64,000 nt of DNA from Flectonema sp. DT1601 (Eukaryota), in NCBI GenBank assembly GCA_964019425.1, contig OZ025803.1, forward strand, positions 930,001 to 994,000. The letters are read 5' to 3'. The position numbers and the translations under genes were made by a program. Below the pieces are notes generated by a model. The model worked only from the letters and a program-made list of their open reading frames with translations. It was not told the DNA's origin and searched no databases. Shown here piece after piece: positions 2,084 through 54,310 of the stretch. Within the stretch, counting starts at the first letter, position 1, and the number at the start of each line of letters is the position of its first letter.

Positions 2084-2543
2084 TTTGAAAAGTGTTTTTG
2101 GAATTCAATAGCTGGAGGACGGGGAGGGAAAAGAAATTAGAAATACACAACTCCTCTCAGTTCACAACAATCAACAAAACAGAACAACAAGCAGCTCATA
2201 ATCCAACAAAGACCATCTAATTGTATAAGGCTGTGAAAATAGTTTAATAACCATACTTACCTTTTGAAATAGTTATCAAAGTTGGCATTGCCATGTGTAA
2301 AGCGAGTTGCAGGGAGTTCCTGTTTCCCTGCCTTTTCCCTTTTCCTTTTTTTTTTTTTTTTTTCTAAATACTTTTTTTTTCAGGGTTGGAGAACACCAGG
2401 AGTGATGTATGACGGAAACCGTAAAAATGCATTTTATTTTGTAAATAGGCCTCTTGTTGTTTACAAAGTTAGTTGTGTAGGCTGACCGTCACTTCCGTGT
2501 TGGCTCTCCATCTCACCCTCAGCCTCCCAATCTCTGGCCATCA

Positions 2544-23123: not shown

Positions 23124-23516
23124 TGTTGAAGTTCCTGGAGATAATGACCTTAAGGTACGACGTTAAAACTTGTGTCTTCTTTTAAGTAAAGCGAAGTGAT
23201 ATATTGGATCGGGAAATACCCTTTACGATTAATTACTGCAGCGGGCTTCTATCGTGACTGTCAAAGAAAAGAGATTAAATACCGCACTCTTAAATCCATT
23301 CATGACCCAACACTACAACCCGCTCGGAGATCTTATTTTCTTTTTTTGTCTGCTGTTAGCTAGAATCCGAGATATGAAGAAGTAAATGACTAACCCGAAG
23401 CTTGTCTTCTTAATTTTCATGCATTTTTCCCATGGGAGCTAACCCCCATCACGATATTCGTGAATGACAGAAACACTACAGACTTCTAATAAGTCAACAA
23501 CAACAATTCGACCACT

Positions 23517-23909
23517 CTATGCGAAAAGCATAAGGAAGGCAATCATGAGAGCGAATAGACCAATAGCCTCAGTCAGAGCGAATCCAAGAATGGCGTAGTT
23601 AAAGAGAGCTCTCATGAGGTTTGGTTGACGAGCAGCCGCCAACAAGAAACTTCCGAAGACGTTTCCGATACCAACACCAACTCCAGCAAGAGCAATGGCA
23701 GACAGACCTGTTCGTGTTGTTAGTTTTAAAGGGGTTAAATGTTGCTACTACAAAGACTTTTCAACAAGAACCAACACAAAAGTTTTCATATCCATACCGG
23801 TACCAACGTAGTTAAGACCCGAAACGGTCACCTGAAGGGATGAGTTACGCGCCTGAACTGGAGCAACAACAGCAGAGCGGGCGGCGACGCGAAGTCCTGA
23901 TCTCATCAT
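23517..23909 (-). CDS. ATP9: Mitochondrial ATP synthase subunit c, nuclear-encoded with presequence; two exons (intron 23708-23797)
   Basis: Hand-spliced 100 aa: [12 protein letters not shown]...[26 protein letters not shown]...ARQPNL...[24 protein letters not shown]. It is absent from the ORF track. Confidence 0.95.
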
Positions 23910-24098
23910 CTTAAAGGAGTGGTGAAGGCTGAAATAACTGTTGGGAGGGAAAATAATATAACAAACCGCAACAACAAATAATATTCAAATTCTGCAAGAG
24001 AAGATAAGCAACAAACACACTTTCCAGTTATTGATCCTGATCCCCTTCTCCATATATTTGTTATTAACAAAAATATTATGAGTGGACTGTCACCTTCT

Positions 24099-24610
24099 AA
24101 GAACACTGTTGGTCTCAGACACAAAAGAGTTGAGACGCTATATAAACAAGCGCAATCAATTAAATTAGACATCCTCAGATCCTCACAGGACTCTGACATG
24201 CACGGTGTCTACAATGTTATTATGGAGAAATCGTCCAATTGGTCGAAGAAGTTTTCAGCTTCTGCTGAATGGGAGCGCCTTATTAAGTTTTTTTCTTACC
24301 GTTCTCTCGCGAAGCAATCAGCTGGTCTTGGTCACCGATTGCGCGATCTACGTACTACTCGCCCCGATCTCCTTAAGCGTTTTGAAGTGGAAGCCACAGA
24401 TGAACTACTGAACTCTTTGAATAAATTACAAGTCCAAGGACAGTGAAAGGAGTGGTCTAAATGTATGATAAACGACTTCACCTGGAATAAGGTACTTAGG
24501 GAGGGAAATCCTGCCTATATCTCATTTCAACTGAAAGCGGTTACAAACACCCTCCCCTCACAAGATAATTTAAAGAGGTGGAACATCACCAATGTGGACC
24601 AAAATTGTGT
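24099..24610 (+). mobile_element. Internal fragment of the REL-type non-LTR element seen at the window end
   Basis: Near-identical to ~63481-63992; carries a TGG>TGA stop at 24444-24446. Confidence 0.9.
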
Positions 24611-25059
24611 ACCAACGATTCTAAAGCTACAGTTTCTGTTAAATCTATTTCGGTAATTTGCAGCATTCTCAAGCACCAGGGAAAATAGCGCCGACACGTA
24701 GTAGCATCGGTGTCGGCGATCGTCAGGACCATTTTGTTACAGTAGATTTAAAAGATCAGTCTTATTTATTATTTGATCTACGTTATTATTATTGTCCCCT
24801 TTACTAGGAAATCGACGATCGCGTTGCAACCTTCGAGAAAACTTTTTAAATTGGCAACCCAACGAACCAACGGGCCCAGCAGGCGTCCAGCCCAACCAAC
24901 GGCGGACCCACCACACCCCAACGCAGTGGCCTACTCGTCAAGGGTAGACCACCAAGTTGACAACTATTATATGTTTATGGTTACCGAGTGAATTGTTTTC
25001 TATCTTCTTTCTTTTATCAGGTGCAAAAAGAATGCGTAGCCAATTACTGTACTTTATTG
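24611..25059 (+). other. Spliced-leader (mini-exon) sequence, nt 2-39, split by an insertion: 24611-24639 plus 25051-25059
   Basis: Joined halves give ACCAACGATTCTAAAGCTACAGTTTCTGT|ACTTTATTG (38 nt), containing the euglenozoan SL core CAGTTTCTGTACT.TATTG. No GT donor follows, so this is not an SL RNA gene. Confidence 0.88.
24640..25050 (+). mobile_element. Solo A-B terminal repeat of a VIPER-like YR retrotransposon (diverged variant of the 27627-30926 element)
   Basis: Start taaatctatttcggtaatttgcagc resembles 30469; 24853-25050 aligns with B repeats 30262-30468 and 30720-30926; it ends aattactgt. Confidence 0.85.
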
Positions 25060-25193
25060 TTTTTTCCCTCCCTCGCCCCATCCCCGTCAGCGAGTAGGAA
25101 AGCGCAGCTAGGAATTTTTCCACGCAAGCGGATCCCACAACCCGACCACCCTTCCCCACGCTCATCCCATCCGCCCTCCCCCACCCCAACAAA

Positions 25194-25505
25194 ATGAAAT
25201 CGGCGGCAGCCACGATACAGGCGCAACAGACCGGAGTGGGTACGGAGAGGTCTAGGGAAGAGATCGGTCCGCTGCTCATCGCGGCATGCGCGTGTAGAGG
25301 AAGGACGGGGGCTGTCACCACAATGACAAAGCAGACACCATCACCGAAGAAGCAGCCACCACCGATCCCTATGTGTGACTTGTGCGGCCAAAACAGCCAC
25401 AATAAACACAACAAAAAAGGTTTGCACCCTTTTGCCTCTTTGTTTCTTTCTCGCCGCTCGCCGTCAAGCACACATTGGGATAGATTAGATGGGTATGCTG
25501 GATGA
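25194..25505 (+). pseudogene. Truncated ORF ending in an incomplete CCHC zinc knuckle (second copy 31070-31381)
   Basis: First ATG after the SL; CDLCGQNSHNKHN is CX2CX4H, with the fourth ligand lost where sequence character changes (~25413). Confidence 0.45.
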
Positions 25506-26170
25506 TCGGTGTCTGCCGCAATGTGGAATGGAGGGCCAAAGCCAAAAGCTTGCCCGGATCCACCTGAAACCACCACTAAAAGGACAGTTTTCTCATAGTT
25601 TGTGATTATTTATATGTTGTGGGAGGAAATAAATAGGCAAGGCTTATTACAGGTTTTGATGCCAAGGCTGACAATATACTGAGTTGAGGAAGTTGGGAGT
25701 GGAATAGGGGCAGTGAACTTTTGATTCAGGCCCTTCCCATCGGACAGGACGAAGACTTCTAAAACCTAAGATGAACCAATTGAGTTGAAACAAACAGATA
25801 ACAGAGACGCAACACATACCGGAACATCATCGCAAGCAATGCTTCGGACCTCCGTCGACCTTCGTTCTTCCGGCGGCAAAGGGAAACAAGAAAGAACGGG
25901 CAAAGAGACAAACCTGTTAGTTGGTGTTGTGTTGTTGTTAAAAACAAAAACATAAACGCCAGGAAGTTCGACAACGAAGACATCGACATCGATCGCTGCT
26001 CTGCAGATGTCCGGCGGGTGTTTGTCTACACTGTGTTTATTGTTTGTTTTTACCCTCAGGCTCAACCTTGGGGAAGAGAAGTAAAAATTCCGTCAATGTT
26101 GGCCTTCCTGTTCGAAGGTGCGCACCAATGACGATAAATAGAGTGGGGGGAGACCAGGGAAGGTTACACT

Positions 26171-26377
26171 GTGAGAACCTGTGAATGCGGTGGGAAGGTA
26201 TCGAGATACAGCAAGAAGGCTCATGTCAAATCGGTGAAACATCAAACATATTTGAAGCTTGTTGAGAGCGTGAAGAATAACGCTAGTGAAGGAGTTAATG
26301 AACATGATCGCTTGCTGGAATGCGAGAAAAGGTTGTCCGAGATAATGACCTTACTGAGCAAGGTTAGAGGTATGTGA
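26171..26377 (+). pseudogene. 5'-truncated small CECG zinc-finger gene (second copy 32047-32253; paralog of 34673-34927)
   Basis: CECGGK..YSKKAHVKSVKH; the N-terminus of the paralog is replaced by the 370-bp repeat. Confidence 0.6.
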
Positions 26378-26936
26378 TATGATTTCATTGCAATTGCAAT
26401 GATGTCCTGGAGGGAAAAGGGAGCATTGATACAGCCCCCCTGTGGAAAGAGATAAGGGATTAAAACGGGGGCTCAGGCTATAGGTTTCTTTTCTTGTAGC
26501 ATACTTAAAAGGTGGCCTAAAAGGAAGAAAACATAAAAAGAAAAGCTAAATGGAAACGAAGGGATTTGGGAGAGGGCAAAACTTTTTTTTTTCTTTTTTT
26601 TTTTTTTTTTTTTTTTTTGTACCCGTGCTACACAGTTACAGAATGCCCGCAAACTCTCATAAGAATTTAGGGGCTGATTCGAGCAAGGAGCTAAGCCGAG
26701 GTTATTTTTAGCCGATAGCTTCACTGATCAGAAGAAGGTTATACTGCTTGAAAATACGATGCAAAAAGAAATGAGATGGTTAACAAAAATATTATAAAGG
26801 AAAGGAAAAAAGGAAACGGAATAAACATGAGAGATGGGACCTGTTGGTCAGCAAAGGTTTACTGTGTCAGTCAAAAACCACTAAGGATTTCAGGTCAGAC
26901 TCGAAACAAAGAGGAAAGAAGAAGGCCCACATGCTT

Positions 26937-27626
26937 TCAGTTGGAAGATCTCGTGGGCAGAATTTTCTTCACGATTTCGAGTATCTTCGTGTGCACATCA
27001 GCATCCTCCTCTCCTTTAGATAACACACTTAGAGTGTCAGTGTAGAGTTGGACGGAGTGAAGTACTCGTAAATTGTACCCCGTGAGGTCCATACATGAAA
27101 CCACGAAGCTGTGGAGGTCATCAACCGGTCTGGGCGTGTATTTGGTGAGTTTTTGGATCCACGGTGCTCTGAATTCCTCTGGGGCACCCTCGTGCAGAAC
27201 CTCTGAAGTGCCTTTGATGGCAGACCCCCAGTCATTGAGCAGCACAGTAGGGTCACCGTCGATTTGAGTTGAAAAAAAGTTGCTCGTTGTAACGTCACGG
27301 TGCACGTACTCTTTGGAATGGACAATTCGTAGGATATCCATCAAAGCAACTGCATCCTCGTAGTAAAATATCCGATCAGCTCTGTTAAAGTGACGGGCAA
27401 AAGGTTTAACAACAAGATACTTCCCTCCTGATGCAATGATCCTGAGGATGCGTTCACTAAGTCCCTCTGCGAGAGCAGTGAGAATCGATGCTTCTTTCTT
27501 CTGGCGATCCTCATTATCATACACCTTAAGCACTCCGCTGTTGTCAGCGAGACTGTACACATTACAAGTCGCACCTCGCCCACGCCATGGACCAGCAACG
27601 TACTCATTCCCGTTGATAGCCACTGG
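26937..27626 (-). pseudogene. Kinase-domain-only truncated copy of the REase+kinase gene
   Basis: Identical to the 3' part of 32813-34477; the 5' part is replaced by the YR element at 27626/27627. Confidence 0.85.
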
Positions 27627-27739
27627 ATTCAGGCAACGAGAATTTTCTACTGGATGGCGAAGCCGAGCTTCAGACCGCAGAAACATCAACTCTAGGAACG
27701 CTAGAAGGAGATGTAATAAAAAGAGCAGTCTTAAATATT

Positions 27740-28648
27740 TTGCAACAGAGTGTCAAGAAAAAGAAGCAATCGGAGGACGAAGTGGACCCGGACGAGGCCG
27801 AGGAGAGGATTCAAGGCCTGGTCGAGAAGACTTGGGCGAAGCCAACAACGGTTGCAAGAAGAGCACTGTGGGACAGGTTGAACAGATGGATCCAATTGAA
27901 CGACCTTCCCTTGAACGCAAACTCGGCAGTTCTGTTTGTGGCGGCAACAGGAGCGGCCCCATCTGCCCTCCTTACGTATTCAAAGCACCTGTCAGCGATG
28001 ATGGGGAAGCTGGGAATGGAGACAAGTCCGTTATCAATAATGGGTACTTCGTTGAGAGCCGCTGGTGCCGAGATTCCAAGCAGGCAGGCAGAACCGATGG
28101 CGAAGGAAGATTTGGTGAAGTGGGCCAAGACACAAAAAGTGAATGTCCGGTTGGCACTCATGATCTGCTGGAAGACCGCGTCCCGGTGGGGAGAGGTGGC
28201 GACCCTGTCAAGCGAGCAGGTGAATGTGATAAGCAGAAACGAGGTGATTGTCGACTGGGCAACGAACCCCAAGGGCAGAAAGCGGAATCCGTTCTACCCT
28301 GGAAGGTGGGCAGTTATCGTGGGAGACCTGGTGGAGGAGATCGCGTCCGACAACATCCAGTTAGGAAAGTACGAAAGACTGACGGAGTGGGACACAGCAA
28401 AGTTGGTGCAGGAATGGAGAAGGGAGAAGTACATGAAGAAGTACTCGGCGCACTCCATCAAGCGAGGGGCGATAAGTCGCCTGTTCGAACAGTTGGCGAG
28501 CGGAGAGGATATCAGGGAGGAATTAATAAGCCGCCTCGCGAAGCACAGCACAACCGCCGCCCTCTCGAACACAACGATCCGGTACGGAGGAAACCCAGTG
28601 GCATTGGCCCGGGCATTGCGAACATCGGAGGTGACGATTCACCTCTGA
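27740..28648 (+). CDS. Tyrosine recombinase of family-1 element (start uncertain)
   Basis: Catalytic motifs WKTASRW (R), HSIKRG, LAKH, TIRY. Confidence 0.88.
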   Translation: MQQSVKKKKQSEDEVDPDEAEERIQGLVEKTWAKPTTVARRALWDRLNRWIQLNDLPLNANSAVLFVAATGAAPSALLTYSKHLSAMMGKLGMETSPLSIMGTSLRAAGAEIPSRQAEPMAKEDLVKWAKTQKVNVRLALMICWKTASRWGEVATLSSEQVNVISRNEVIVDWATNPKGRKRNPFYPGRWAVIVGDLVEEIASDNIQLGKYERLTEWDTAKLVQEWRREKYMKKYSAHSIKRGAISRLFEQLASGEDIREELISRLAKHSTTAALSNTTIRYGGNPVALARALRTSEVTIHL

Positions 28649-28662
28649 CCTGTATTAGGAAA

Positions 28663-30345
28663 ATGAGGGCGCAGTTTACTCACAGAGGAAAGAGTACTCG
28701 TCTGCCTTCAACAGTTGAGGAGAGGGGCGCGCCGTTGCATGTCTCGAAGATACCGGAGATGAATCTCAGACATGTCAGGTCACGAATGCTACCTTCGATA
28801 AGGAAGCGTTTTGAACATGTATGGTCACTCACATTTAATTATATCAACAAACAGGAAAAAGAAAGTAGAAAGAAGAAATCAAGGTTTTCAGCAGACCATG
28901 CTAAGAAGCTGGCTGAGTGTCATATTGCCGTTCCTTTTAATTTATCTGAGTCAAGGGCGCATAATGTGCCATTTACTGTTTTCGAAGAAAGAGAGTCTGG
29001 AAATAGACAGAGGTTTATTTTGTGGACAAAAGAAGAGAACGAAAGAATCACAGGGGAGGGGTATGTTCCTTTTGTCCCGTTGAAACACATTTCGGAATAC
29101 CTGGGTGCAGTTGACTCAGAGGTTGCATCTCTGAGAGACTTCAAAACTGGTTTTTACCAGGTTGCAATCCCAGAAGAGGCAAGAGGCCTGTTTGCGTTTC
29201 AGGATTCCGAGGGTGCTTCGTATGCCTTGACCAGACTGCCCATGGGGCATGTTTGTGCACCGGAAATAATGAACACCGTGGCTGCTGTGGTAGCAGGTGA
29301 CCCGCTTTTTGTCAAGGACAGGTATGCGGAGAAGGATGTTGGGATCCATTGGTGGATCGACAATATCAGGTATTTCGGTGGAAGGGAGAAGGTGCACAGT
29401 GCAACAGAAAGATTGGATAAACTGGCATCTGAATGCAACATTTCTTGGAAACCACAGGATACAGTTAACTGTGGTGGATCTTATGATTTTCTTGGTGTTT
29501 CTTTTTTACATAATGCAAAGGAAGTGGGCTTAGGTGCCAAGATTAGAAGAGGTATTTTCAAGTGTGATTTAAATCGTATGACTGCCTCGAGTATCGAGTC
29601 ATTAGGGGGGAGACTTCTACATGCGAGTGCAATTTCAGGTGTTCCACCTGGGCGTTACTGGTTTGCTTTAAAGTTTCTGAGAAGAGTAACAAACAAGCTC
29701 AACAAGGGCTCTTTACGTGTTGAACAGGAAGTGGTTATTCCCCCCTCTGTGAAAAGAGAGTTTTTCAATTGGTGTAAGTCGGTCCAGAAGAAAAGGATCA
29801 TTAAGTTGAATGGGACAAAGAAAAAGAAAGCTGAGGTATTTGTTGATGCCTCGCTCCAAGGGTGGGGCGGGGTTATTGTTTGGGAATCTGGAGAATTGGA
29901 AATCCTGGGAGGGGCATGGCCATATGGTGGGAGTCGCCACATTAACATTCTTGAAGCTGATGCTCTGGCCAGGACTCTGGGTGGAATCAGCCATGCTGAC
30001 CACCTGGACATCTGGGTAGACAATACCTCGGTATGTGGAGCATTCAGGAAGAGAATGTGTGTAAGATCGCATGATTTGAACTTTTTTGTTATAAAAGCAG
30101 TGGAGAGAATTTTGTTTTTTAAGTGTTCTTTTTCTTTAAAATGGGTGAGTACGAAGTACAACCCAGCAGATATTCCATCTAGGGAAGCAATATCTTCGGC
30201 TACCAGGCAGAAGGTAGAACTTGCGCTGGGGGAATTCTTTAACTCGCGGCGGGGTGGTGGAGCCGGCAACCCAACGAACAGAACTGGGACCGGCAGCGGC
30301 GTCCAGCCCATCCATGGCGGACCCACCACAACCCCAACGCGGTGA
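28663..30345 (+). CDS. Reverse transcriptase-RNase H of family-1 element
   Basis: DFKTGFYQ, RLPMG, WIDN; RNase H motifs FVDAS, HINILEA, VDNTS, NPADIPSR. The frame is also open upstream across the YR gene. Confidence 0.9.
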   Translation: MRAQFTHRGKSTRLPSTVEERGAPLHVSKIPEMNLRHVRSRMLPSIRKRFEHVWSLTFNYINKQEKESRKKKSRFSADHAKKLAECHIAVPFNLSESRAHNVPFTVFEERESGNRQRFILWTKEENERITGEGYVPFVPLKHISEYLGAVDSEVASLRDFKTGFYQVAIPEEARGLFAFQDSEGASYALTRLPMGHVCAPEIMNTVAAVVAGDPLFVKDRYAEKDVGIHWWIDNIRYFGGREKVHSATERLDKLASECNISWKPQDTVNCGGSYDFLGVSFLHNAKEVGLGAKIRRGIFKCDLNRMTASSIESLGGRLLHASAISGVPPGRYWFALKFLRRVTNKLNKGSLRVEQEVVIPPSVKREFFNWCKSVQKKRIIKLNGTKKKKAEVFVDASLQGWGGVIVWESGELEILGGAWPYGGSRHINILEADALARTLGGISHADHLDIWVDNTSVCGAFRKRMCVRSHDLNFFVIKAVERILFFKCSFSLKWVSTKYNPADIPSREAISSATRQKVELALGEFFNSRRGGGAGNPTNRTGTGSGVQPIHGGPTTTPTR

Positions 30346-31658
30346 CCTACTCGCATGGGTAGTCCACCAAGTTGACCATTGTTTAGTTTATTGATATCAC
30401 CGAGTGATTTGTTTCTCATGTTTCCTTTCTTCCAAACAGGTGCCCAAAGGATGCAAGATAATTACTGTTAAATATATTTCAGTAATTTGCAGCATCCCAA
30501 AGCACCGTTTCAACAAGCATCGAATTTTTCGATGCGTTCCCATAATGTAAATCCAACATTATGATTATTAGTTTCTTAATACCAATTCTTAATTCACACC
30601 CATTTATCAGATTTCGAACCCCGTTTCGCGCATACCATTTTCACGAATTTTAAATTCCCACCCACCCACACCTTTTTAAAAAAAAAAAAAAAAAAAGTCC
30701 CACCCACCGACCCTCCATCGCCGGCAACCCAACGAACAGAACTGGGACCGGCAGCGGCGTCCAGCCCATCCATGGCGGACCCACCACAACCCCAACGCGG
30801 TGACCTACTCGCATGGGTAGTCCACCAAGTTGACCATTGTTTAGTTTATTGATATCACCGAGTGATTTGTTTCTCATGTTTCCTTTCTTCCAAACAGGTG
30901 CCCAAAGGATGCAAGATAATTACTGTACTTTATTGTTTTTTCCCTCCCTCGCCCCATCCCCGTCAGCGAGTAGGAAAGCGCAGCTAGGAATTTTTCCACG
31001 CAAGCGGATCCCACAACCCGACCACCCTTCCCCACGCTCATCCCATCCGCCCTCCCCCACCCCAACAAAATGAAATCGGCGGCAGCCACGATACAGGCGC
31101 AACAGACCGGAGTGGGTACGGAGAGGTCTAGGGAAGAGATCGGTCCGCTGCTCATCGCGGCATGCGCGTGTAGAGGAAGGACGGGGGCTGTCACCACAAT
31201 GACAAAGCAGACACCATCACCGAAGAAGCAGCCACCACCGATCCCTATGTGTGACTTGTGCGGCCAAAACAGCCACAATAAACACAACAAAAAAGGTTTG
31301 CACCCTTTTGCCTCTTTGTTTCTTTCTCGCCGCTCGCCGTCAAGCACACATTGGGATAGATTAGATGGGTATGCTGGATGATCGGTGTCTGCCGCAATGT
31401 GGAATGGAGGGCCAAAGCCAAAAGCTTGCCCGGATCCACCTGAAACCACCACTAAAAGGACAGTTTTCTCATAGTTTGTGATTATTTATATGTTGTGGGA
31501 GGAAATAAATAGGCAAGGCTTATTACAGGTTTTGATGCCAAGGCTGACAATATACTGAGTTGAGGAAGTTGGGAGTGGAATAGGGGCAGTGAACTTTTGA
31601 TTCAGGCCCTTCCCATCGGACAGGACGAAGACTTCTAAAACCTAAGATGAACCAATTG

Positions 31659-32029
31659 AGTTGAAACAAACAGATAACAGAGACGCAACACATACCGGAA
31701 CATCATCGCAAGCAATGCTTCGGACCTCCGTCGACCTTCGTTCTTCCGGCGGCAAAGGGAAACAAGAAAGAACGGGCAAAGAGACAAACCTGTTAGTTGG
31801 TGTTGTGTTGTTGTTAAAAACAAAAACATAAACGCCAGGAAGTTCGACAACGAAGACATCGACATCGATCGCTGCTCTGCAGATGTCCGGCGGGTGTTTG
31901 TCTACACTGTGTTTATTGTTTGTTTTTACCCTCAGGCTCAACCTTGGGGAAGAGAAGTAAAAATTCCGTCAATGTTGGCCTTCCTGTTCGAAGGTGCGCA
32001 CCAATGACGATAAATAGAGTGGGGGGAGA
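31659..32029. repeat. ~370-bp dispersed direct repeat (also 25783-26153 and 35273-35644)
   Basis: agttgaaacaaacagataac...ggggggaga, near-identical in three places; two copies bracket the kinase module. Confidence 0.9.
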
Positions 32030-32812
32030 CCAGGGAAGGTTACACTGTGAGAACCTGTGAATGCGGTGGGAAGGTATCGAGATACAGCAAGAAGGCTCAT
32101 GTCAAATCGGTGAAACATCAAACATATTTGAAGCTTGTTGAGAGCGTGAAGAATAACGCTAGTGAAGGAGTTAATGAACATGATCGCTTGCTGGAATGCG
32201 AGAAAAGGTTGTCCGAGATAATGACCTTACTGAGCAAGGTTAGAGGTATGTGATATGATTTCATTGCAATTGCAATGATGTCCTGGAGGGAAAAGGGAGC
32301 ATTGATACAGCCCCCCTGTGGAAAGAGATAAGGGATTAAAACGGGGGCTCAGGCTATAGGTTTCTTTTCTTGTAGCATACTTAAAAGGTGGCCTAAAAGG
32401 AAGAAAACATAAAAAGAAAAGCTAAATGGAAACGAAGGGATTTGGGAGAGGGCAAAACTTTTTTTTTTCTTTTTTTTTTTTTTTTTTTTTTTTTGTACCC
32501 GTGCTACACAGTTACAGAATGCCCGCAAACTCTCATAAGAATTTAGGGGCTGATTCGAGCAAGGAGCTAAGCCGAGGTTATTTTTAGCCGATAGCTTCAC
32601 TGATCAGAAGAAGGTTATACTGCTTGAAAATACGATGCAAAAAGAAATGAGATGGTTAACAAAAATATTATAAAGGAAAGGAAAAAAGGAAACGGAATAA
32701 ACATGAGAGATGGGACCTGTTGGTCAGCAAAGGTTTACTGTGTCAGTCAAAAACCACTAAGGATTTCAGGTCAGACTCGAAACAAAGAGGAAAGAAGAAG
32801 GCCCACATGCTT

Positions 32813-34477
32813 TCAGTTGGAAGATCTCGTGGGCAGAATTTTCTTCACGATTTCGAGTATCTTCGTGTGCACATCAGCATCCTCCTCTCCTTTAGATAAC
32901 ACACTTAGAGTGTCAGTGTAGAGTTGGACGGAGTGAAGTACTCGTAAATTGTACCCCGTGAGGTCCATACATGAAACCACGAAGCTGTGGAGGTCATCAA
33001 CCGGTCTGGGCGTGTATTTGGTGAGTTTTTGGATCCACGGTGCTCTGAATTCCTCTGGGGCACCCTCGTGCAGAACCTCTGAAGTGCCTTTGATGGCAGA
33101 CCCCCAGTCATTGAGCAGCACAGTAGGGTCACCGTCGATTTGAGTTGAAAAAAAGTTGCTCGTTGTAACGTCACGGTGCACGTACTCTTTGGAATGGACA
33201 ATTCGTAGGATATCCATCAAAGCAACTGCATCCTCGTAGTAAAATATCCGATCAGCTCTGTTAAAGTGACGGGCAAAAGGTTTAACAACAAGATACTTCC
33301 CTCCTGATGCAATGATCCTGAGGATGCGTTCACTAAGTCCCTCTGCGAGAGCAGTGAGAATCGATGCTTCTTTCTTCTGGCGATCCTCATTATCATACAC
33401 CTTAAGCACTCCGCTGTTGTCAGCGAGACTGTACACATTACAAGTCGCACCTCGCCCACGCCATGGACCAGCAACGTACTCATTCCCGTTGATAGCCACT
33501 GGCTCGCACATTCCAAAATCAAAGCTGCTGCTTTCCATGAACCCTCGTACGGTCTTCCAGGCACTTTCTTTTTCATTTACATCACTGTACTCATACTTTG
33601 TCATTCCTTCCCCATGTTCTCCAAACTCACAGCGCATAACTAAGGATTGATACCCGTTAAAGAGCATGCCATAGACAACCCTCCTTCGACCCTGAAAGTG
33701 TGCAATTCTGCTCAACTTGTCCAGCAGTTCACCTTTAGTCTCGTTGCTGTTGATGCTAACATTCGGTGCTTTCAATTCAATTATGGCAATGAGTGTGTGT
33801 GTTTCAGCCGTCTTGCCCTTCAATGTGCAGGACAGGTCAGGGCACTGAGCGTTGAGTTCTCCCTTTGAATCCTTGAGACAGGAAGAGTTATGGGTGTCAT
33901 GCCACGTGAGAGACATGTTTTTGGCATTATCAAATAAGTCGGCAAACGCACTCTGAAGGTCTGCTTCCTCCGTTGCTTCTTTACAACTTGATTTGCATTT
34001 CGTCCATCCTTCTTGCCAGGTGTCACCGGAGTAGCTCCGAACGATATTGCTGTTGTGTGAACCTAGTTCTGATACCTTGAGCGTAAGCTCGCTGCGCGTT
34101 AAAGCAAATGTGTCTGAGCTCTTGGGTCTCTTCAAAATATGCTGTTGCACCTCCTCCACCGCCTCTGCCAAGCGTTTAATCTTGGCATTAGGTTCCCTGA
34201 GTGCAGCCAATTTTGCTGCTACATCTTCACCTTTTGTCAGGAGATTTAGTCGTTCTTTGGCTTTTGTGATATTTTGCTCGAGGTCACTGGCTTCAAGTTC
34301 TGCTAATGCACAATCGTCTGTCTCTGTTTTCTTTTCTTTCGCCATCCTCATTATTTTTACTTTAAGAATTCGCAGGTCCTTCTGCAACTCCTTTACCTTC
34401 GCATCCAACTCCTTTCTCTGCTCCTTTGCGTCTGCCTGGAACTTGTCCACCATCTCCAAATCATGGCTCTCTGCCAT
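32813..34477 (-). CDS. Crinkler/RHS-type effector-like protein: coiled coil + PD-(D/E)xK nuclease fold + protein kinase
   Basis: N-terminal coiled coil; CPDLS...IIELK; kinase motifs GRGATCNVY, VLK, HRDVTTSN, DWG; no intron. Start placed at MAESHD. Confidence 0.78.
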   Translation of the reverse strand: MAESHDLEMVDKFQADAKEQRKELDAKVKELQKDLRILKVKIMRMAKEKKTETDDCALAELEASDLEQNITKAKERLNLLTKGEDVAAKLAALREPNAKIKRLAEAVEEVQQHILKRPKSSDTFALTRSELTLKVSELGSHNSNIVRSYSGDTWQEGWTKCKSSCKEATEEADLQSAFADLFDNAKNMSLTWHDTHNSSCLKDSKGELNAQCPDLSCTLKGKTAETHTLIAIIELKAPNVSINSNETKGELLDKLSRIAHFQGRRRVVYGMLFNGYQSLVMRCEFGEHGEGMTKYEYSDVNEKESAWKTVRGFMESSSFDFGMCEPVAINGNEYVAGPWRGRGATCNVYSLADNSGVLKVYDNEDRQKKEASILTALAEGLSERILRIIASGGKYLVVKPFARHFNRADRIFYYEDAVALMDILRIVHSKEYVHRDVTTSNFFSTQIDGDPTVLLNDWGSAIKGTSEVLHEGAPEEFRAPWIQKLTKYTPRPVDDLHSFVVSCMDLTGYNLRVLHSVQLYTDTLSVLSKGEEDADVHTKILEIVKKILPTRSSN

Positions 34478-34672
34478 TGTTTTGTTTTTGTTTTTGGTTT
34501 CGTTTTCTGGGGCGGGAAGTAATAAATGACTAAAAAATAACACATCCAGAAAGTAACACGCTCGTGGGACTACTGCGAGACTTCCGCGGGACTGTTGCAG
34601 GTTTTCTACGGGACATCCACAATTTTAGGTTCATTTAAAATCAACCCTTAAATATAAAAACTCACTATAAAA

Positions 34673-34927
34673 ATGGGCAGACCACAAAATGGTAAGATTA
34701 AGACCAAGGAAGGGTATACTGTGAGAACCTGTGAATGCGGTGGGAAGGTATCGAGATACAGCGAAAAGGCACATTTCGAGTCAGTGAAACATCAAACATA
34801 TTTGAGACTTGTTGAAAGCATGAAGAATGGGACAACTGAAAGGGTTAACGAACATGATCACCTGCTGGAGTGTGAGAAGAAGCTGTCGGAGATTATGACT
34901 CTGCTAAACGGTGTAAAGAGTCGCTGA
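34673..34927 (+). CDS. 84-aa CECG-type C2H2-like zinc-finger/coiled-coil protein
   Basis: CECGGK..YSEKAHFESVKH. A diverged paralog at 32047 keeps the frame and the motif. Confidence 0.65.
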   Translation: MGRPQNGKIKTKEGYTVRTCECGGKVSRYSEKAHFESVKHQTYLRLVESMKNGTTERVNEHDHLLECEKKLSEIMTLLNGVKSR

Positions 34928-36026
34928 TACCTTGATATTGCATCGATTTCATTGCGATTGTAATGACATTTCCTGTTGAATGAATGTAATAACTTAAGTT
35001 GGACGAACATGATTAATGGGACGAAACGAAAAGGAAAAACAAGTAATTATATCTCAAAGCACCCAACGTGACCTTGGGCCGAGCGGTATCGTTCGTTCAA
35101 ACAGTAAAATAGAGAGGAAAATAAATTTAGAGAGGAAAATAAAGAAAAATGTCAATCACACATGTGGGTGTCATAGTTCCCAATCGAATGAGGGAGTGGG
35201 AAAGATGTAGCCATGGTTCTATTCTCGAAGACTTGGTAATGTGTGCTTGTAATATTTTGCAGACATTTCGTAAGTTGAAACAAACAGATAACAGAGACGC
35301 AACACATACCGGAACATCATCGCAAGCAATGCTTCGGACCTCCGTCGACCTTCGTTCTTCCGGCGGCAAAGGGAAACAAGAAAGAACGGGCAATGAGACA
35401 AACCTGTTAGTTGGTGTTGTGTTGTTGTTAAAAACAAAAACATAAACGCCAGGAAGTTCGACAACGAAGACATCGACATCGATCGCTGCTCTGCAGATGT
35501 CCGGCGGGTGTTTGTCTACACTGTGTTTATTGTTTGTTTTTTTCCCAAGGTTCAACCTTGGGGAAGAGAAGTAAAAAATTCCGTCAATGTTGGCCTTCCT
35601 GTTCGAAGGTGCGCACCAATGACGATAAATAGAGCGGGGGGAGAAAACCTTTGATCCAACTGGATCCCTTCACGAGCTGACATTGCCATGTGAAGTTAAA
35701 TATTCTGGCGATGCCAGCTCAGGCGACTTAGCCTGCTTTTTTCTTTAAATAAAAAAAATAAAAAGATACCAACAGGTGGGGTGATGGGTTGCGCCACTGC
35801 AATCCAGTCACAAAAAGAAACAAAGGTAATCTCAAGGGTTCTCGACCCTTGGCTCTTCCTGCGCAAGCATCGCATGGAGGGTGACGCTAAGCACCCGGGG
35901 GGTACGAAACAAACTTTCCCCCTGCTGTCCTGGTTGAAATAAAAAAAAAAAAAAAAAAAAAAGGGATAGAAGTAAACAGAATACATTACACCTCAACAGG
36001 TGACGCTAAACACCCAGGGGATACAA

Positions 36027-37312
36027 TGAGGCGATCGGCAGGGGTGGAGGTTTCACGAATTTTCACGATCCTTCACGGTTTGTCACGAGTTGTCACTACC
36101 TATCACGAAAATTCACGAAAATTCACTGCCAAAAAGCATGGTGAAAAATCGTGAATTTTCGTGAATTTTGATATTGAGATTTGTGGTTTGGTAAAAAAAA
36201 CTACTCAGGGGGGGCCTGAACTGCACTGCTTCGTAGTTGTCATCGGTGCTTGTTAATCCTATCGTTCTCTACAGTTTATTGTTAATACTACTTCTCTTTA
36301 ATCCAGCTCTTGTTACAGTTTCATGTGGTTGCTGAACTATTCTAGCACAGGTGGGTTGATAGGCATGTGTGGTGATCGTTGAAGTGGTGGGTTGTATGTG
36401 CAGGATTGTGTGTTCCTCATTCGCAACCGGGAGAGTACCTTCTGCCTGGTAAGTGACACAACATCTGTGCTTGTTCATACGTGGGAATCGGTCGTTTGCT
36501 TACTTGCTTCGCAACAAGCACCGCATCTCTTTTAGGGCGTGCCCATTTAAAGAGAAGGTTACAAATGGGCGCTTCGGAACCTTAGCATTTGCATGCTATG
36601 TGTTATCATGCCCGCTTCGAGGTATTCCATTCCTCAGGTGGGTTCTCACATTCTTGCAGCGCAACAAGCGCCTCATCAAGTACTCTCATCGTCGCAGGCG
36701 GGCATACGCTTACCTGATGTCTCTCAGTAACGAGGAAATGGGCAACATCATGGAGTTCATGTGTGCACAATATAGTATTGTGAATGGTGTGCTCAGACGT
36801 CTCATCTCATTCTCCCGGGAGCATCGCACTCCGCGACAGCTTCTCCAGTTTTGGGCAGAGGTTGCACGTGACATGTCAGAGGCAGCCACAATTGACATCT
36901 CATATTTGCTGAATGATCATGGTCGGGTTGTTACAGAACAGAACAGTCTGAACGAGAATGAGCCCACTCAGTGATTAAACCCACCGCACACGCGATGCGC
37001 CGGTCCAAAGTCCGGAACCTCACCACAAGCGATGGTCAGGAAGGGTGATGGGTCACTGGGCACAAGCGATGCCCATTTAGTTGTCAAAGTGACATGTATG
37101 GCAAACTGAACAGGTTTGACATTGCACAGCACCAACGGTACCATCTGGATGTCACTCACTTTTTTCACTAGAATTCACACATTTTCACACATTTTCACAC
37201 ATTTTCACAGGATTTCACTACCAAAAAGCAGCAAAAAATTAAGTGAAAAATCGTGAAAAATCGTGTAGCAAAGTGAAAAATCGTGAACACCTCCACCCTG
37301 CCGATCGCCTCA
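36027..37312. mobile_element. Non-autonomous TIR element, ~1.3 kb, superfamily unassigned
   Basis: TIRs tgaggcgatcggcaggg(g)tggaggt / acctccaccctgccgatcgcctca with TTCAC(G/A) subterminal repeats at both ends; internal 173-aa ORF with no recognised domain. Confidence 0.75.
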
Positions 37313-37795
37313 CTATGTCGATCACTTTCTATTTTCCGTCCTGGTCAAGACGCTAAACTGATTGTTTTTTCTTTAAAAAATAATAAAAAGGATTTAAAAA
37401 AAAAAAAAAAAAAAGTATAAACAATGTTATCATTGTTTTTTTATCGATCGACTATGTCGATCACTTTCTATTTTCCGTCCTGGTCAGGACGCTAAACTGA
37501 TTGTTTTTTCTTTAAAAATAAATAAAAAGAATAATAAAAAAAAAAAGGAATAAACAATGTTATCATTGTTTTTTTATCGATCGACTATGTCGATTACTTT
37601 CTATTTTCCGTCCTGGTCAAGACGCTAAACTGATTGTTTTTCCTTTAAAATAATTAAAAGGATTTAAAAAAAAAAAAAAAAAAAAAGAATAAACAATGTT
37701 ATCATTGTTTTTTTCTATCGATCGACTATGTCGATTAATTTCTATTTTCCGTCCTGATCGAGACGCTAAACTGATTGTTTCCTTTTTTTAAATAA
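37313..37795. repeat. Palindromic AT-rich satellite, ~100-135-bp units (copy at 43025-43507)
   Basis: Unit aacaatgttatcattgtt-T(n)-atcgatcgactatgtcgat-...gtcctggtcaagacgctaaactgattg-A/T tracts. Confidence 0.95.
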
Positions 37796-37800
37796 AAAAA

Positions 37801-39561
37801 GAATTGGCTTTAACTTCAACTATACAGAAAATAATGATATAACACTGTGATTTTTTGTTTGTGCACGAAACCGTGAACCGACTTAAACTGATAAAGCTAA
37901 AGGAGGTTTACGTGTGCTGCCAACATTCTTTTTCGTTCTTACAATACTTGTTAAATGCAAAAAAGAATTGGCTTTAACTTCAACTATACAGAAAATAATG
38001 ATATAACACTGTGATTTTTTGTTTGTGCACGAAACCGGACCCCTTTCCAGTGGATTGTTCGTGGCCGTCGTGTCTAGTTTGATATGGTATCTATCAAAGT
38101 TGGGAGAATAACGGTCTTTTATGAGATAATAAACCGATGCGATGCGGTGTTCGTTCTTCTTGTGTATCATTTCTTAGTATGCTTCATCTTCCAGTCTAGT
38201 GTGCTTGTCAGCAATATTGTCCTCGCTCGCCACGTACTCGACGTGCAGAACTGAACTAGACCTGTCCAACAGTCGATGAATAGTCCGTAACATGGGTTGT
38301 ACATTTTGTTGTAGAGAATAGCCACGGTGCAACGAACCGATAACTCCCTTGTTGTCTACATGTCCCGTCACCCTGCAACTCTGCAGTTTTAACTCTGTCA
38401 CTACATATTCAATGGCCTTGACTACTGCGAAAAATTCCTTTTCGAAAATCCCCATGTTCACTATATCGCGCGGGAAGCGTCCTCTCCGATAAGAGTTTCC
38501 CACTACAAATGCCCAGGCTTTTGTACTTGCATCAGATACGGAAGTCATTTCTGTTTCATAGCTACGCTTATTCCACCGCACCCATTCGTTCTTCACAAGC
38601 TGCAGGAATTGAAAGAAATACGATGTAAAGTCAAACTCGCAAGCGTACCTACGTGGTAGCAAGGTTTCCACTATCGTTTCGTAAGACGGTAGCCTGCATG
38701 GCGGTAACGAGGTATAAGCTGTTAACTCATTAATAGTCTTACAATTTAGGATGAAACGTAATTGTCCAGGTGTACTTTTCGGTATGAGAAAAGCAGAGTG
38801 CATGAATCTATTCGTCGTCGATCTAGGAGATGGTTCGGCGAAACCAAGCTCAAGCATGCGTTCGGTATGAGGTTTTAATTGGACATTCTTTGCGCCTATC
38901 CCAGATTCGTCTTCTTGTGGCGAATTGTTAATCACTTGGATGACAAAGTTCGGATCTGCAATCCATCTCATGTTTGTTCTCAGGTTCGGATAGCTTCCCA
39001 CTAGCAGTTCCATGTTTACCGGTTCCATTCTTATTCCAGATATGGTTCCGTCATAACATGTTCGCGGACAACGTGTTCCAGTTATCCCCGTTAGCCATCC
39101 TTCCGCGTAGTCGTACATGCGGAATCCTGCTTCCAATTTTGAAGCCCAAAAAGGTCTGTCATGGATAGCTTTCACTGCAGTAGTGCGGCCGCTTTTATCG
39201 TATTCCGAGTCGAGGTCCAAGTCTCCGGCGGTATGTAGAACTGGGTTGACGTCCCTGATGCATGCCGCGCCATCGCCTGAGCGTCCCGTTCCGACGACTC
39301 CAACGCGACATACGTGAGTGCACTGTGACGTATGTAGTGGCTCGTGGTGTCGAGATGTCTTTCCAGCCATCTGTTGTATCCCGATCGGTTCAAACCCGTG
39401 AATACCATTTCGCCATTCGTTGTTGCCAACCATTGCAACACCACGCGGAATAAAGAGCCATTTTTTGCTACCAGAATCCATTGACCTTGTCTCGTTTTGT
39501 CGGTCTTCCCCCCGACCAAGCCAATTAGGTAACCGTTCCTGACTTCCCGGATGTTAAATGC
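37801..39561 (-). mobile_element. YR retrotransposon family 2, internally deleted non-autonomous copy
   Basis: YR C-terminus (HYIRH, ARH, FY; 39172-39519); RT lacking its catalytic region fused to RNase H (SDAS, EFFAV, VDN, NIADKHTR); B1-A2-B2 at 37801-38037; only the outer ~11 bp of A1 retained. Confidence 0.85.
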
Positions 39562-40706
39562 AAAAAAAAAAAAAAAAAAAGGAGCATCTCCCTGCTATCC
39601 CCATATCCCCACAATAATATTATACCTTTTCATTTTCTCTTTCCTTTTCTGGTCTTTTTTTTTTCTTTTTTTTTCCTTTTTCATACAACGTTTTTTATTT
39701 ATATTTTATTTTATTTTTTTTTCATGTTTGATTACTTCCTCTTCATATTTTTTTTTTTTTTTTTTTTTTTCTCTGCCTCTCTCTTAATTCTGTTCGTTTC
39801 TTTGAAACGAAAATTCATTTGAATATTATTCCTTGGTCAGCAACAGTCATTGTCGCCCTTTGGGCCTGTTAAAAAAAATAAAAAATAAAAAGAAAGTTTA
39901 CATCGGGAATAGGCAGGAGCCAAAAGCTCCCAGTCCGTTACTTCCCACTTTATCGAAATCTTCTAATAACTGATATCACATGTCTTTCAAGCTTGTATTT
40001 TACTACTTCTGTGGTATAATTATTTAGTGAATTTATGGATATCTCCTCCTTTTAGTGACATTTTTTTAATCCTAGGTAGGGAAAATGTGTGTTAAGGCAA
40101 GTATAGCGAAAAATCATACTCAGTGTTGAGTTGAGTTGAATTACCAGGTGAGATTTGGACAGTTAGCTTTTGGCTAAGGCCCTCCCTGAAGAGCAAGAAC
40201 AAAAAAACTACTCGCACCTGAAGAAAACATACACAAAGAACAACGATCGGCTATGCCGATCGACCTTTAAAATAATTGTCTTCTTCTTCTCGACGTTCAG
40301 ATCCAATTGATCGACCTTTTCTTTTTTTTTTCCTTTATTCCTTCCATCCCTCCCGCTCCCCTTATTTTAATAAAAACAAGATCAGCTCAGCTTGATCGTT
40401 ATTTATTTATCTATTTATTTATTTTTTTTTTTTTTTGTTGGTCCTAGTCAAGACCTTAAACTGACTAATCGGTCTTAATTTTAACTAACCTTTTAATACT
40501 CTCTATCTGGTCTGTTATGTCATATTTCTCATTTAATTTTATCATCCATTTTACTTTTCACTGTTTCCCATCTACATTTTATTTTCAAATAGTTACGGTC
40601 TGTTAAAAAAAAAAAAGTTTAAATAAGTTAAATTGAACATGTTAACTCAATTCCTCAATTCTTCCGTCATGGTCATGACATTCTTTTTCGTTTCTCCAAT
40701 GCACAA

Positions 40707-40801
40707 GAGATACCATCACTCATGAGATACCAACGCACATACGAGATACCAGCACTCCAGAGATACCGACACGCTAGAGATACCAAGTCACTTGAGATAC
40801 C
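40707..40801 (+). repeat. Six phased GAGATACC motifs with variable spacers (also 46419-46513 and 55683-55777)
   Basis: Start-to-start spacing is 17,19,17,17,17 in both diverged versions. Confidence 0.9.
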
Positions 40802-40955
40802 TCCTTGTAAATTAATTCCCGGTATTTCAAATTTGAATTGATAGTGTCAACTCTGCTTGCTGCTCTCGTTTATGTGTTGTCTCCTGAAAGTGATCTTAAC
40901 TCCTATAAAAAGAAAAAAAAAAAAAGAAATCAAAAAAGAAGAATTTTCAAACGAG

Positions 40956-41936
40956 TGAGTTAAGTTACCAGGTGAGATTTGGACTGTTAGCTTTTGGCTA
41001 AGGCCCTCCCTGAAGAGCAAGAACAAAAAAACTACTCACACCTGAAGAAAACATACACAAAGAACACACTGTAGGCTGTGTGTGTATTTTGTGTTTGTCA
41101 CAACAGGAGAGAAAAGAAAGAATGTCAAGGTTGGTCACCTTGCCTATCAACGCACAACATTGGTGGTCTCTACTAGACCCTGAGTGATCCCACTGGATCT
41201 CTCATCGTTCATAGTACCTATGTGAAGTTATAAAATCAAAGGTAAACTATGAACTACAAATGACTTAGCCTGTTATTATAATGCCACAGGCAGGCCCTGC
41301 ATTCAGCAACTATCCAGCAGTGCTTGGATGTCCTGATCTTCTTCTAAAAAAAAGAAAGAAAGAAAAACAAAACTGTAGCTGGGATCACTCAGGATCAACA
41401 GACTACCAATGCTACCTGTTGTACTTGCTCACTATGGGGGGTGATGCCAAACACCCAGAAGTACTAAACTGCTTTCCTTCTTGCTGCCCAGGAGTTTCTG
41501 ACCAGAACTAATAGAAAATAAAAAGTAGATGGGAAACAATAAAAAGTAAAATGGATATAACTGAAGTTATACAAGACAAATGAAGTAACAGACCAGAACA
41601 GAAAGAGAATTGTAATAGAAGATTACAAATAAAAAAATGCAAGTATCAACACATGATCAGGATACACCAGCAGCTAACAAACAACATAAAATTGAAGATC
41701 AGTTGCCAGAGTATTTCAACCATGGTAGAATACTCGCCCCTCTGGCAGGGATTATCCCAGACTTGTCCTTTAATCTAGTTGGACACCATGGCTTACAACC
41801 CTTCCAGAGGGAAGCACCATTATGACTTCTATTTTTTTTCTTCAAGAAAATCATAAGGTGGGAACAAAGAAAAATGCTAAGAGGAACCCCCTATTAACAC
41901 CTAAGACATCTAAACTGCAGCCCAGCCTATGCCCAG
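40956..41936. repeat. ~1-kb non-coding dispersed repeat present in both orientations
   Basis: Inverted copies at 42082-42616, 47794-48328, 48709-49684 and ~49825-50130; direct copy at 46668-47648; partial copy at ~40130-40243. Confidence 0.9.
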
Positions 41937-43512
41937 TTATAACAACCCCTACCACCCATTATGATCAATTCCGCTTGTTTTTTTTTTTTTTTTTAAAAAC
42001 AAATAAAAAAATAAAAAAAATTATAAAAGAGTAAACAATGTTATCATTGTTTTTTTTATCGATCGACTATGTCGATCACTTCTCCTGGGCAGCAAGAAGG
42101 AAAGTAGTTGAGTACTTCTGGGTGTTTGGCATCACCCCCCATAGTGAGCAAGTACAACAGGTAGCATTGGTAGTCTGTTGATCCTGAGTGATCCCAGCTA
42201 CAGTTTTGTTTTTCTTTCTTTTTTTTAGAAGAAGATCAGGACATCCAAGCACTGCTGGATAGTTGCTGAATGCAGGGCCTGCCTGTGGCATTATAATAAC
42301 AGGCTAAGTCATTTGTAGTTCATAGTTTACCTTTGATTTTATAACTTCACATAGGTACTATGAACGATGAGAGATCCAGTGGGATCACTCAGGGTCTAGT
42401 AGAGACCACCAATGTTGTGCGTTGATAGGCAAGGTGACCAACCTTGACATTCTTTCTTTTCTCTCCTGTTGTGACAAACACAAAATACACACACAGCTTA
42501 CAGTGTGTTCTTTGTGTATGTTTTCTTCAGGTGTGAGTAGTTTTTTTGTTCTTGCTCTTCAGGGAGGGCCTTAGCCAAAAGCTAACAGTCCAAATCTCAC
42601 CTGGAAATTCAACTCAGTCCTTGTCAGTTTTGGCATCAAACTTGTAATGGTTTAATCATTACAGGTTATTTACTGAAATATTTGTTCTAAAAGTTGCTAA
42701 GTATTTCTCACTTAGAAATTTTTTATTTTTTTATTTTCAGCTTAATTAGCTAGCGGGTGATGGGTCACTGGGCACAAGCGATGCCCATTTAGTTGTCAAA
42801 GTGACATGTATGGCAAACTGAACAGGTTTGACATTGCACAGCACCAACGGTACCATCTGGATGTCACTCACTTTTTTCACTAGAATTCACACATTTTCAC
42901 ACATTTTCACACATTTTCACAGGATTTCACTACCAAAAAGCAGCAAAAAATTAAGTGAAAAATCGTGAAAAATCGTGTAGCAAAGTGAAAAATCGTGAAC
43001 ATCTCCACCCTGCCGATCGCCTCACTATGTCGATCACTTTCTATTTTCCGTCCTGGTCAAGACGCTAAACTGATTGTTTTTTCTTTAAAAAATAATAAAA
43101 AGGATTTAAAAAAAAAAAAAAAAAAAGTATAAACAATGTTATCATTGTTTTTTTATCGATCGACTATGTCGATCACTTTCTATTTTCCGTCCTGGTCAGG
43201 ACGCTAAACTGATTGTTTTTTCTTTAAAAATAAATAAAAAGAATAATAAAAAAAAAAAGGAATAAACAATGTTATCATTGTTTTTTTATCGATCGACTAT
43301 GTCGATTACTTTCTATTTTCCGTCCTGGTCAAGACGCTAAACTGATTGTTTTTCCTTTAAAATAATTAAAAGGATTTAAAAAAAAAAAAAAAAAAAAAGA
43401 ATAAACAATGTTATCATTGTTTTTTTCTATCGATCGACTATGTCGATTAATTTCTATTTTCCGTCCTGATCGAGACGCTAAACTGATTGTTTCCTTTTTT
43501 TAAATAAAAAAA

Positions 43513-51180: not shown

Positions 51181-51606
51181 ATGGTCCTAGTCAAGACCTT
51201 AAACTGACTAATCGGTCTTAACTTCAACTAAGTGAATGAACCCTTCCCGTTTTCCTTTTCCCTTTATTACTCTCTATCTGGTCTGTTATGTCATAAATCT
51301 CATTTAATTTTATCATTCATTTTAATTTTCACTGTTTCCCATCTACATTTTATTTTCAAATAGTTCCGGTCTGTCTTTAATTTTAAATAAAACCATTCAG
51401 ATTAACCTTATATTTCGTTGAACGCAGACAAAATCCTGTCGCACGGGGAAAATAAATCATGACCATAAGAAATAATCGGTTTTCAATCTGAATAGTTTCT
51501 TCTCCGACTACGTCGGTACAAAAACCATTCAGATTAACCTTATATTTCGTTGAACGCAGCTCATGACCATAGGGACCGCAAAGCGGAAAGAAAGAGAAAG
51601 AACATT

Positions 51607-54305: not shown

Positions 54306-54310
54306 TGAGG

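Follow-up and report, generated by a model that had tools for sequence, protein, structure and literature searches.

Layout of the locus

In a 64,000-nt stretch of the Flectonema sp. DT1601 genome (contig OZ025803.1, positions 930,001 to 994,000, forward strand; hereafter the window), sequences of a tyrosine recombinase (YR) retrotransposon lie directly beside parts of a spliced leader (SL). The original prediction, made from the letters of this DNA, was that VIPER-like YR retrotransposons had inserted site-specifically in the SL, and all of its coordinates hold on re-check. Two variants are distinguished: subfamily 1, represented by a solo terminal repeat with an A and a B part, and subfamily 2, represented by a coding copy with reverse transcriptase and RNase H (RT/RH) and the repeats B1, A2 and B2. 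The features of the locus, including its open reading frames (ORFs) and a retroposed complementary DNA (cDNA), are as follows.

24095..24610, plus strand: LINE-like (non-LTR) fragment, 98.45% identical to 63477-63992; cut within a Cys-rich motif by the SL-capped cDNA
24611..24639, plus strand: left part of the SL (SL positions 2-30), 29 nt, with the CTGT core at 24636-24639; 100% identical to the exon of the L012 SL RNA gene described below
24640..24852, plus strand: A part of the solo repeat, subfamily 1; inner boundary approximate; its start aligns with the A2 start at 86.7% over 45 nt
24853..25050, plus strand: B part of the solo repeat, subfamily 1; ends in CTGT; 79.5% identical to B2, with the last 9 nt identical
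25051..25059, plus strand: right part of the SL (positions 31-39), 9 nt; joined at the trans-splice acceptor
25051..27626, plus strand: block X, copy 1, comprising the SL right part, the body of the cDNA and the 3' portion of a minus-strand kinase-like gene
27627..30926, plus strand: YR retrotransposon of subfamily 2, 5'-truncated, with gag and A1 missing
27629..28648, plus strand: YR ORF, first 113 residues missing
28663..30345, plus strand: RT/RH coding part; the frame is also open upstream, across the YR
30262..30468, plus strand: repeat B1, 207 nt, with the CTGT core of the B1/A2 junction at 30465-30468; 100% identical to B2
30469..30719, plus strand: repeat A2
30720..30926, plus strand: repeat B2, 207 nt, ends in CTGT
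30927..33502, plus strand: block X, copy 2; starts with the SL right part (30927-30935) and leads on into the complete kinase-like ORF
32813-34624, minus strand: kinase-like ORF with a coiled-coil-like N-terminus and weak DUF6826 and Pkinase matches in Pfam

The fragment at 24095..24610 is presumably LINE-like, a label that comes from a reading of the ORF at the window end, with no family match behind it.

A spliced leader on a retroposed cDNA

Removal of 24640-25050 joins the SL halves into a 38-nt SL, as had been predicted, and the joined sequence equals positions 2-39 of the exon of an SL RNA gene (L012) found by a pattern scan of genome contigs. This gene (2210-2248, minus strand) has a 39-nt SL exon followed by a GT donor and lies inside a cluster of 5S, U5, U6, signal recognition particle and tRNA genes. 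Its eukaryote-like contig is filed in a metagenome-assembled genome (MAG) of the bacterium Cognatishimia, and is likely a eukaryotic contamination of that genome record. The SL gene of Diplonema papillatum likewise has a 39-bp exon and is present in 110 copies linked to 5S (PMC10161547; this paper, like PMC6681497, PMC12278014, PMC7192593 and PMC8869645, is cited for those parts of it that were available). Within the 64-kb window, the SL left half has no further match with up to 6 mismatches allowed, and the right 9-mer occurs only at 25051-25059 and 30927-30935 (base-composition probability 8e-6), so that its presence at the junctions is not due to chance.

Four related sequencing runs contain 0.05-0.15 of the window's words. 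Their contigs include neither the SL-left/A nor the B/SL-right junction, nor an intact SL gene, and at this coverage no weight was placed on these absences. In contigs from three of these runs, sequence matching block X starts at base 25059 and is preceded by a different sequence whose last two letters are CA, so that a CAG acceptor is formed. Since the base behind the SL thus follows an AG acceptor elsewhere, the SL is attached at the trans-splicing position. On the other side, the LINE-like sequence continues with its own letters beyond 24610 in contigs of all four runs and in the window's second copy. Taken together, the acceptor junction and the continuing LINE identify the target as a reverse-transcribed SL-capped RNA pasted into the LINE. 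Judged from the sequence, the leader at 24611-24639/25051-25059 is a real SL of the trans-splicing type. An SL RNA gene at 24611 was ruled out, as the GT donor is absent and the acceptor junction is present instead; the target at the present locus is a retroposed cDNA and not a unit of the multicopy SL RNA array. The 3' LINE remainder was not found within the window, so that one cannot speak of a clean cDNA insertion flanked by two visible LINE halves.

The retroposed SL-capped cDNA is seen at 24611-26400 and 30927-32250, and its source transcript is seemingly multicopy. Related contigs diverge from it at 31090 with letters that could begin a GT intron; an intron may also have been removed from the cDNA near this point. 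The cDNA contains a short Cys/His-rich ORF, which has another occurrence at ~34670-34930. Apart from the YR element, the locus is an instance of an SL-capped mRNA having been retroposed in this lineage.

That the target is itself a cDNA lends some plausibility to histories without targeted integration, in which template switches at CTGT joined SL-capped RNA to element RNA, or in which the SL was part of the element's transcript. We regard such histories as very improbable. They would require two exact switches at one and the same 4-nt core, right at the outermost bases of A and B, and this for two subfamilies; moreover, trans-splicing adds the whole leader without splitting it, and the inner B1/A2 junction is devoid of SL sequence.

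A VIPER-like YR retrotransposon

The predicted assignment to VIPER-like YR retrotransposons was borne out by the order of YR followed by RT/RH, by the B1-A2-B2 ending and by the solo A-B repeat. The latter corresponds to 24640-25050, where an A-like start is followed by a B-like part, in agreement with the proposed solo terminal repeat. The YR region lies within an open frame (27394-30345) leading to RT/RH, so that the two coding parts overlap. The arrangement of the 3' end is that of VIPER-like split direct repeats, B1 and B2 being identical over all 207 nt in the window self-comparison, whereas an A-type 5' start is present only on the subfamily 1 solo repeat, the coding copy having lost its 5' end. 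Pfam matches of the YR to Phage_integrase (E 0.003) and of the RT part to RVT_1 (E 0.0069) fall below the curated cut-offs; protein searches gave 70 strong homologues for the YR and 94 for the RT. An Rfam scan of the window gave zero matches.

The catalytic motif of YRs consists of R, K, HxxR, H and Y. Residues R156, K185, H245, K248-R249, H276 and Y289 of the window YR are invariant in all 24 aligned homologues. At the HxxR position, all 24 sequences have HSIKR, in which Lys occupies the fourth place, where Arg is usual, and Arg comes directly after it; the second YR element of the window, described below, has HSLRR.

The window YR is 99.7-100% identical to residues 114-452 of two full-length 452-residue proteins, P0095 and P0164. 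Since these proteins extend 113 residues further upstream, position 27627 is a break and not the end of the element; the same break also interrupts the kinase-like ORF. The proposed second variant at 27627-30926 therefore stands in part: it ends at the same base as the first and is followed by the SL right part, but its left border is no element end, and the copy is 5'-truncated at a rearrangement. A protein of the sister cluster (P0179) has extra sequence upstream of the YR; a gag-like first ORF is absent from the truncated window copy. No Pfam match to a methyltransferase domain was found behind RT/RH, where the ORF ends inside B1. Copies of the RT elsewhere are 99-99.6% identical, and these near-identical copies, together with the identity of B1 and B2, suggest that the subfamily 2 element was active recently.

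The nearest named homologues of both RT and YR are proteins of Diplonema papillatum (~41-50%), and a Flectonema neradi transcript was also matched; the D. papillatum homologues include DIPPA_26658, DIPPA_05142 and DIPPA_11650. By these matches, the source of the window would be a euglenozoan, most likely a diplonemid. The RT also matches 944-residue proteins of Trypanosoma cruzi at 31-32% (E about 1e-60 to 1e-62), which we take to be VIPER RT/RH. In a quick RT tree of 76 rows, from which matches covering fewer than 400 query residues were left out and which has no rows named TATE, Ngaro, PAT or DIRS, the window RT is placed among diplonemid-like sequences and the trypanosome rows sit apart on a long branch of their own. 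The family is large, a profile search having matched 1029 clusters with E no higher than 1e-30, and the names of the 10 clusters inspected did not separate VIPER from TATE. No TATE-named or Leishmania proteins occur among the 94 RT and 70 YR matches.

Two subfamilies at one base

Sequences 25051-27626 and 30927-33502 show no differences in 2576 nt, a long T run included. Because the DNA behind both right junctions is the same duplicated block, these junctions represent one target locus. The repeats that end at them are clearly different. Differences between solo B and B2 occur in every 40-column block, only the last 9 nt being identical, and solo A and A2 are 51% alike over the whole A. Since one insertion followed by duplication and collapse to a solo repeat would leave identical repeats, two hits at one base are the simplest way to account for them. 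One insertion with a simple duplication was ruled out by the ~20% difference between the B repeats, and a chimeric solo B by the differences reaching to the last 9 nt. Most simply, two distinct subfamilies would have hit the same base. In the simplest histories, the second hit fell on a second allele or copy, or it occurred serially at the junction of B with the SL right part and was followed by duplication and precise loss.

The original prediction had set against itself the case that both junctions trace to one insertion plus conversion or misassembly. Of this, the single locus with its duplicated block was found; with B repeats only 79.5% alike, however, duplication alone is insufficient. 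A fuller version, in which one insertion is real and the second junction is a misassembly (joined alleles or a chimeric read) or a conversion of the solo repeat from a donor elsewhere, draws on the perfect identity of the duplicated block and on the 27626/27627 break, which is bridged by no contig of the related runs. We consider it improbable, because misjoined alleles would still require both variants at the same base, a conversion would have had to replace an A repeat only 51% alike, and the break, in contrast to misjoins driven by repeats, shows no homology in the window. Not far away lies another tandem duplication, near-perfect with 2457 of 2458 nt alike in the part compared, which may be real or the same kind of artefact.

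The CTGT core and the choice of target

As predicted, the B1/A2 junction of the element (30460-30473) shares the CTGT core with the SL, and CTGT is present at both element ends too. There is no target-site duplication, only this short core common to target and element junction. The arms of the B1/A2 junction are inverted around CTGT at 8 of 10 positions, a level reached by 2 of the 555 CTGT sites in the window. Although all of these sites were on offer, the insertion point lies inside the 38-nt SL. The SL is no default target for YR elements here, since the second YR element of the window sits at a non-SL site with another core (GTTTT, minus strand).

These features can be combined into a history in which the circle and the recombination step follow the standard DIRS model. 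A trans-spliced RNA would have been reverse transcribed, losing the first SL base, and would have landed in the LINE. Element RNA would then have been copied into a circle joining B to A, with two inverted arms around CTGT, and the YR would have recombined this circle site with the CTGT at SL positions 27-30, creating the SL-left/A and B/SL-right junctions without a target duplication. Recombination between A1 and A2 would have left the solo A-B repeat. The second subfamily would have struck this base as well, in another allele or copy of the locus or else at the junction of B with the SL right part that the first insertion had created, and a break without homology would have joined both states in tandem. 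Such a mechanism would be expected to act mainly on SL RNA genes and SL relics genome-wide. The best reading of the locus is SL-specific integration, in which the YR recognises the SL as its attachment site; with one locus to rest on, we give it a probability of roughly 0.55.

Several observations weigh against this reading. Both junctions belong to a single target locus (n = 1), which was chosen because of its appearance, and the serial history allows that the element's own end, not the SL, attracted the second hit. The SL flanks of CTGT are inverted at only 4 of 10 positions and match the element arms poorly, the rebuilt arms of subfamily 1 reach only 5 of 10, and the arm comparison leaves unexplained how the YR would read the SL. 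Eight members of the window's RT cluster are found on at least 6 large contigs, as are 15 listed of the 20 sister-cluster members on at least 14 contigs and 15 listed of the 26 in another cluster on at least 13; for these dispersed relatives to be compatible with SL targeting, SL relics or arrays would have to be dispersed too. A low-depth contig from one of the related runs (X3) carries B-like sequence that departs from the alignment 15 nt before the core, and the 30 letters shown contain neither CTGT nor the right part of the SL. Furthermore, the DIRS circle-integration model is stated in the literature with YR specificity called untested; the double-stranded circle is described as undemonstrated even for DIRS-1, for which mostly linear single-stranded cDNA was found, and insertion of DIRS-1 into DIRS-1 has been reported (PMC7192593).

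As an alternative, the YR may prefer its own ends and a short motif (CTGT and a small number of adjoining bases) rather than the SL as such. The SL relic would then be one of many fitting sites, and the second subfamily would have inserted at the B end of the first, followed by duplication and precise loss. Such an element would account for the family members on many large contigs, the SL and the element share just four identical core bases and weak flanks, and, besides the self-targeting of DIRS-1, the integration sites of DIRS elements are presumed in the literature to be set by short motifs at the junctions (PMC7192593). However, a lucky first hit in the SL would be needed. We estimate that an element recognising only the core would strike an SL gene in ~5 of 100,000 insertions, based on the CTGT density of the window and on the 110 SL genes and 280 Mb of D. 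papillatum (PMC10161547); SL relics would raise this rate. We find a short-motif preference less likely and retain SL-specific integration as the preferred reading.

A search for further copies gave no element with flanks from the metagenome or viral contigs searched. With the RT alignment, 65 candidates in the metagenome contigs yielded two loci, both shorter than 2 kb and negative in blastn against the window repeats or the SL; in viral contigs, the RT and YR alignments yielded none from 44 and 43 candidates, respectively. Junction patterns matched the viral contigs 1 and 10 times, none with SL context or a nearby YR or RT, and these matches were judged to be chance. The SL pattern matched nine viral and two genome stretches, in all of which A follows CTGT, so that none is interrupted. 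A protein search with the spurious frame running from B2 into the flank gave no candidate for another copy. With both junctions in one locus, the SL specificity of the family stays a reading.

In its wider form, this reading would posit a lineage of VIPER-like elements in diplonemid-type euglenozoans whose YR uses the universal SL as a bacterial-style attachment site, with several subfamilies competing for the same base, both in SL RNA genes and in retroposed relics; the niche of SLACS, CZAR and CRE would then have been reached independently, by means of a recombinase. We see the chances of this broader picture as evenly balanced. An SL-specific YR element would add to the non-LTR elements a second, mechanistically unrelated way into the SL safe site. 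It would also provide a defined substrate pair for a eukaryotic recombinase class, namely the arm-CTGT-arm junction and the 39-nt SL, by which the long-standing circle-integration model becomes testable, and could supply a natural site-specific integrase for euglenozoan genetics.

Other elements in the window

A second YR retrotransposon, of another family, occupies ~51390-55650 on the minus strand with gag-like, YR and RT/RH parts and is apparently complete. Its split repeats are ~135 and 39 nt long, and its RT is at most 22-23% like that of the SL-located family. A near-perfect tandem duplication of 5712 nt at 37043-48466 contains inverted repeats 400-525 nt long, a 459-residue ORF and a unit of 130-140 nt that is repeated in arrays. 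Arrays of 130-140 nt also flank a piggyBac-like DDE transposase at 57810-59579 (PF13843, E 8e-69). At 61253-64000, a Tc5/pogo-like remnant is joined to a LINE-like ORF that leaves the window. A long A run lies ~320 nt past the stop codon of the kinase-like ORF, and a GT-AG intron interrupts an ATP synthase subunit c-like gene (23500-23900).

Spliced-leader copies in giant-virus-like contigs

The same SL is present in giant-virus-like contigs, a term used here as a description of the contigs: eight loci (L003-L007 and L009-L011) lie on IMGVR_UViG_3300046534_001516 (237,777 bp), one (L008) on a GVMAG contig and one (L013) on a 45-kb MAG contig. Each of the 13 distinct SL-like copies (10 loci; 0-6 mismatches; 11 copies on one contig) has a AAAATTGA-like motif ~15-20 nt upstream with at most one mismatch and an ATG 8-64 nt downstream. 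We take this motif to be the Mimiviridae early promoter. The arrangement suggests that viruses of diplonemid-like hosts may encode the host leader in their own mRNAs without trans-splicing, a finding that is possibly more surprising than that on the retrotransposon. We found no published report of an SL in giant virus mRNAs, and the term 'spliced leader' has 0 occurrences in the available part of the Bodo saltans virus paper.

Comparison with known systems

In the literature, SL exons are listed as targets of non-LTR elements and microsatellites as targets of CryptonV (PMC8869645), and only the CRE clade is named as SL-specific in the available part of PMC12278014. For D. papillatum, SLACS- and TATE-like ORFs are mentioned with their targets unanalysed, and a rigorous survey of elements is said to be due (PMC10161547); seven supplements of that paper yielded annotation rows only. 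No published description of an SL-targeting YR element was found by title or the start of the abstract, a search that leaves outside Repbase, subscription papers and the supplement of PMC10161547 on repeats and SL arrays.

VIPER/SIRE elements of Trypanosoma cruzi, Crithidia and Bodo saltans have the same YR followed by an overlapping RT/RH, the B1-A2-B2 ending and no target duplication (PMC6681497; PMC12278014). The solo A-B repeat corresponds to SIRE in its relation to VIPER (PMC6681497). However, the available parts of both papers give no SL or other fixed target for VIPER, in contrast to the window element in the SL, and the term 'spliced leader' has 0 occurrences in PMC6681497. The repeats are similar in size (A 173 and B 219 bp in T. 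cruzi VIPER; A ~251 and B 207 in the window), but in the quick tree the window RT groups with diplonemid-like sequences, apart from the T. cruzi rows.

Ngaro elements carry the RT as ORF2 with the YR behind it, whereas the order in the window is YR then RT. The Ngaro elements of Cafeteria burkhardae share the A1-[ORFs]-B1A2B2 structure, solo AB repeats and a type-specific DNA preference, but what they prefer is virophage DNA rather than a single base within a host RNA sequence (PMC8547959). DIRS-like and PAT-like elements have a methyltransferase domain behind RT/RH, for which the window element has no Pfam match.

NeSL is grouped with the SL-inserting elements of the CRE type. Members of the CRE clade (SLACS, CZAR, CRE1 and CRE2) occupy one relative position in SL RNA genes (PMC12278014). 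These non-LTR elements carry a restriction-like endonuclease and end in a poly-A tail, in place of which the window element possesses a YR, RT/RH and split direct repeats.

Finally, TATE elements of Leishmania braziliensis and other species have the same gene order and repeat pattern as the window element and likewise occupy one fixed position of a multicopy sequence (PMC6681497). Their target is the telomeric hexamer, whereas the flanks in the window are SL halves; since a related element inserts at one position of that hexamer, sequence-specific targeting does exist in this group.

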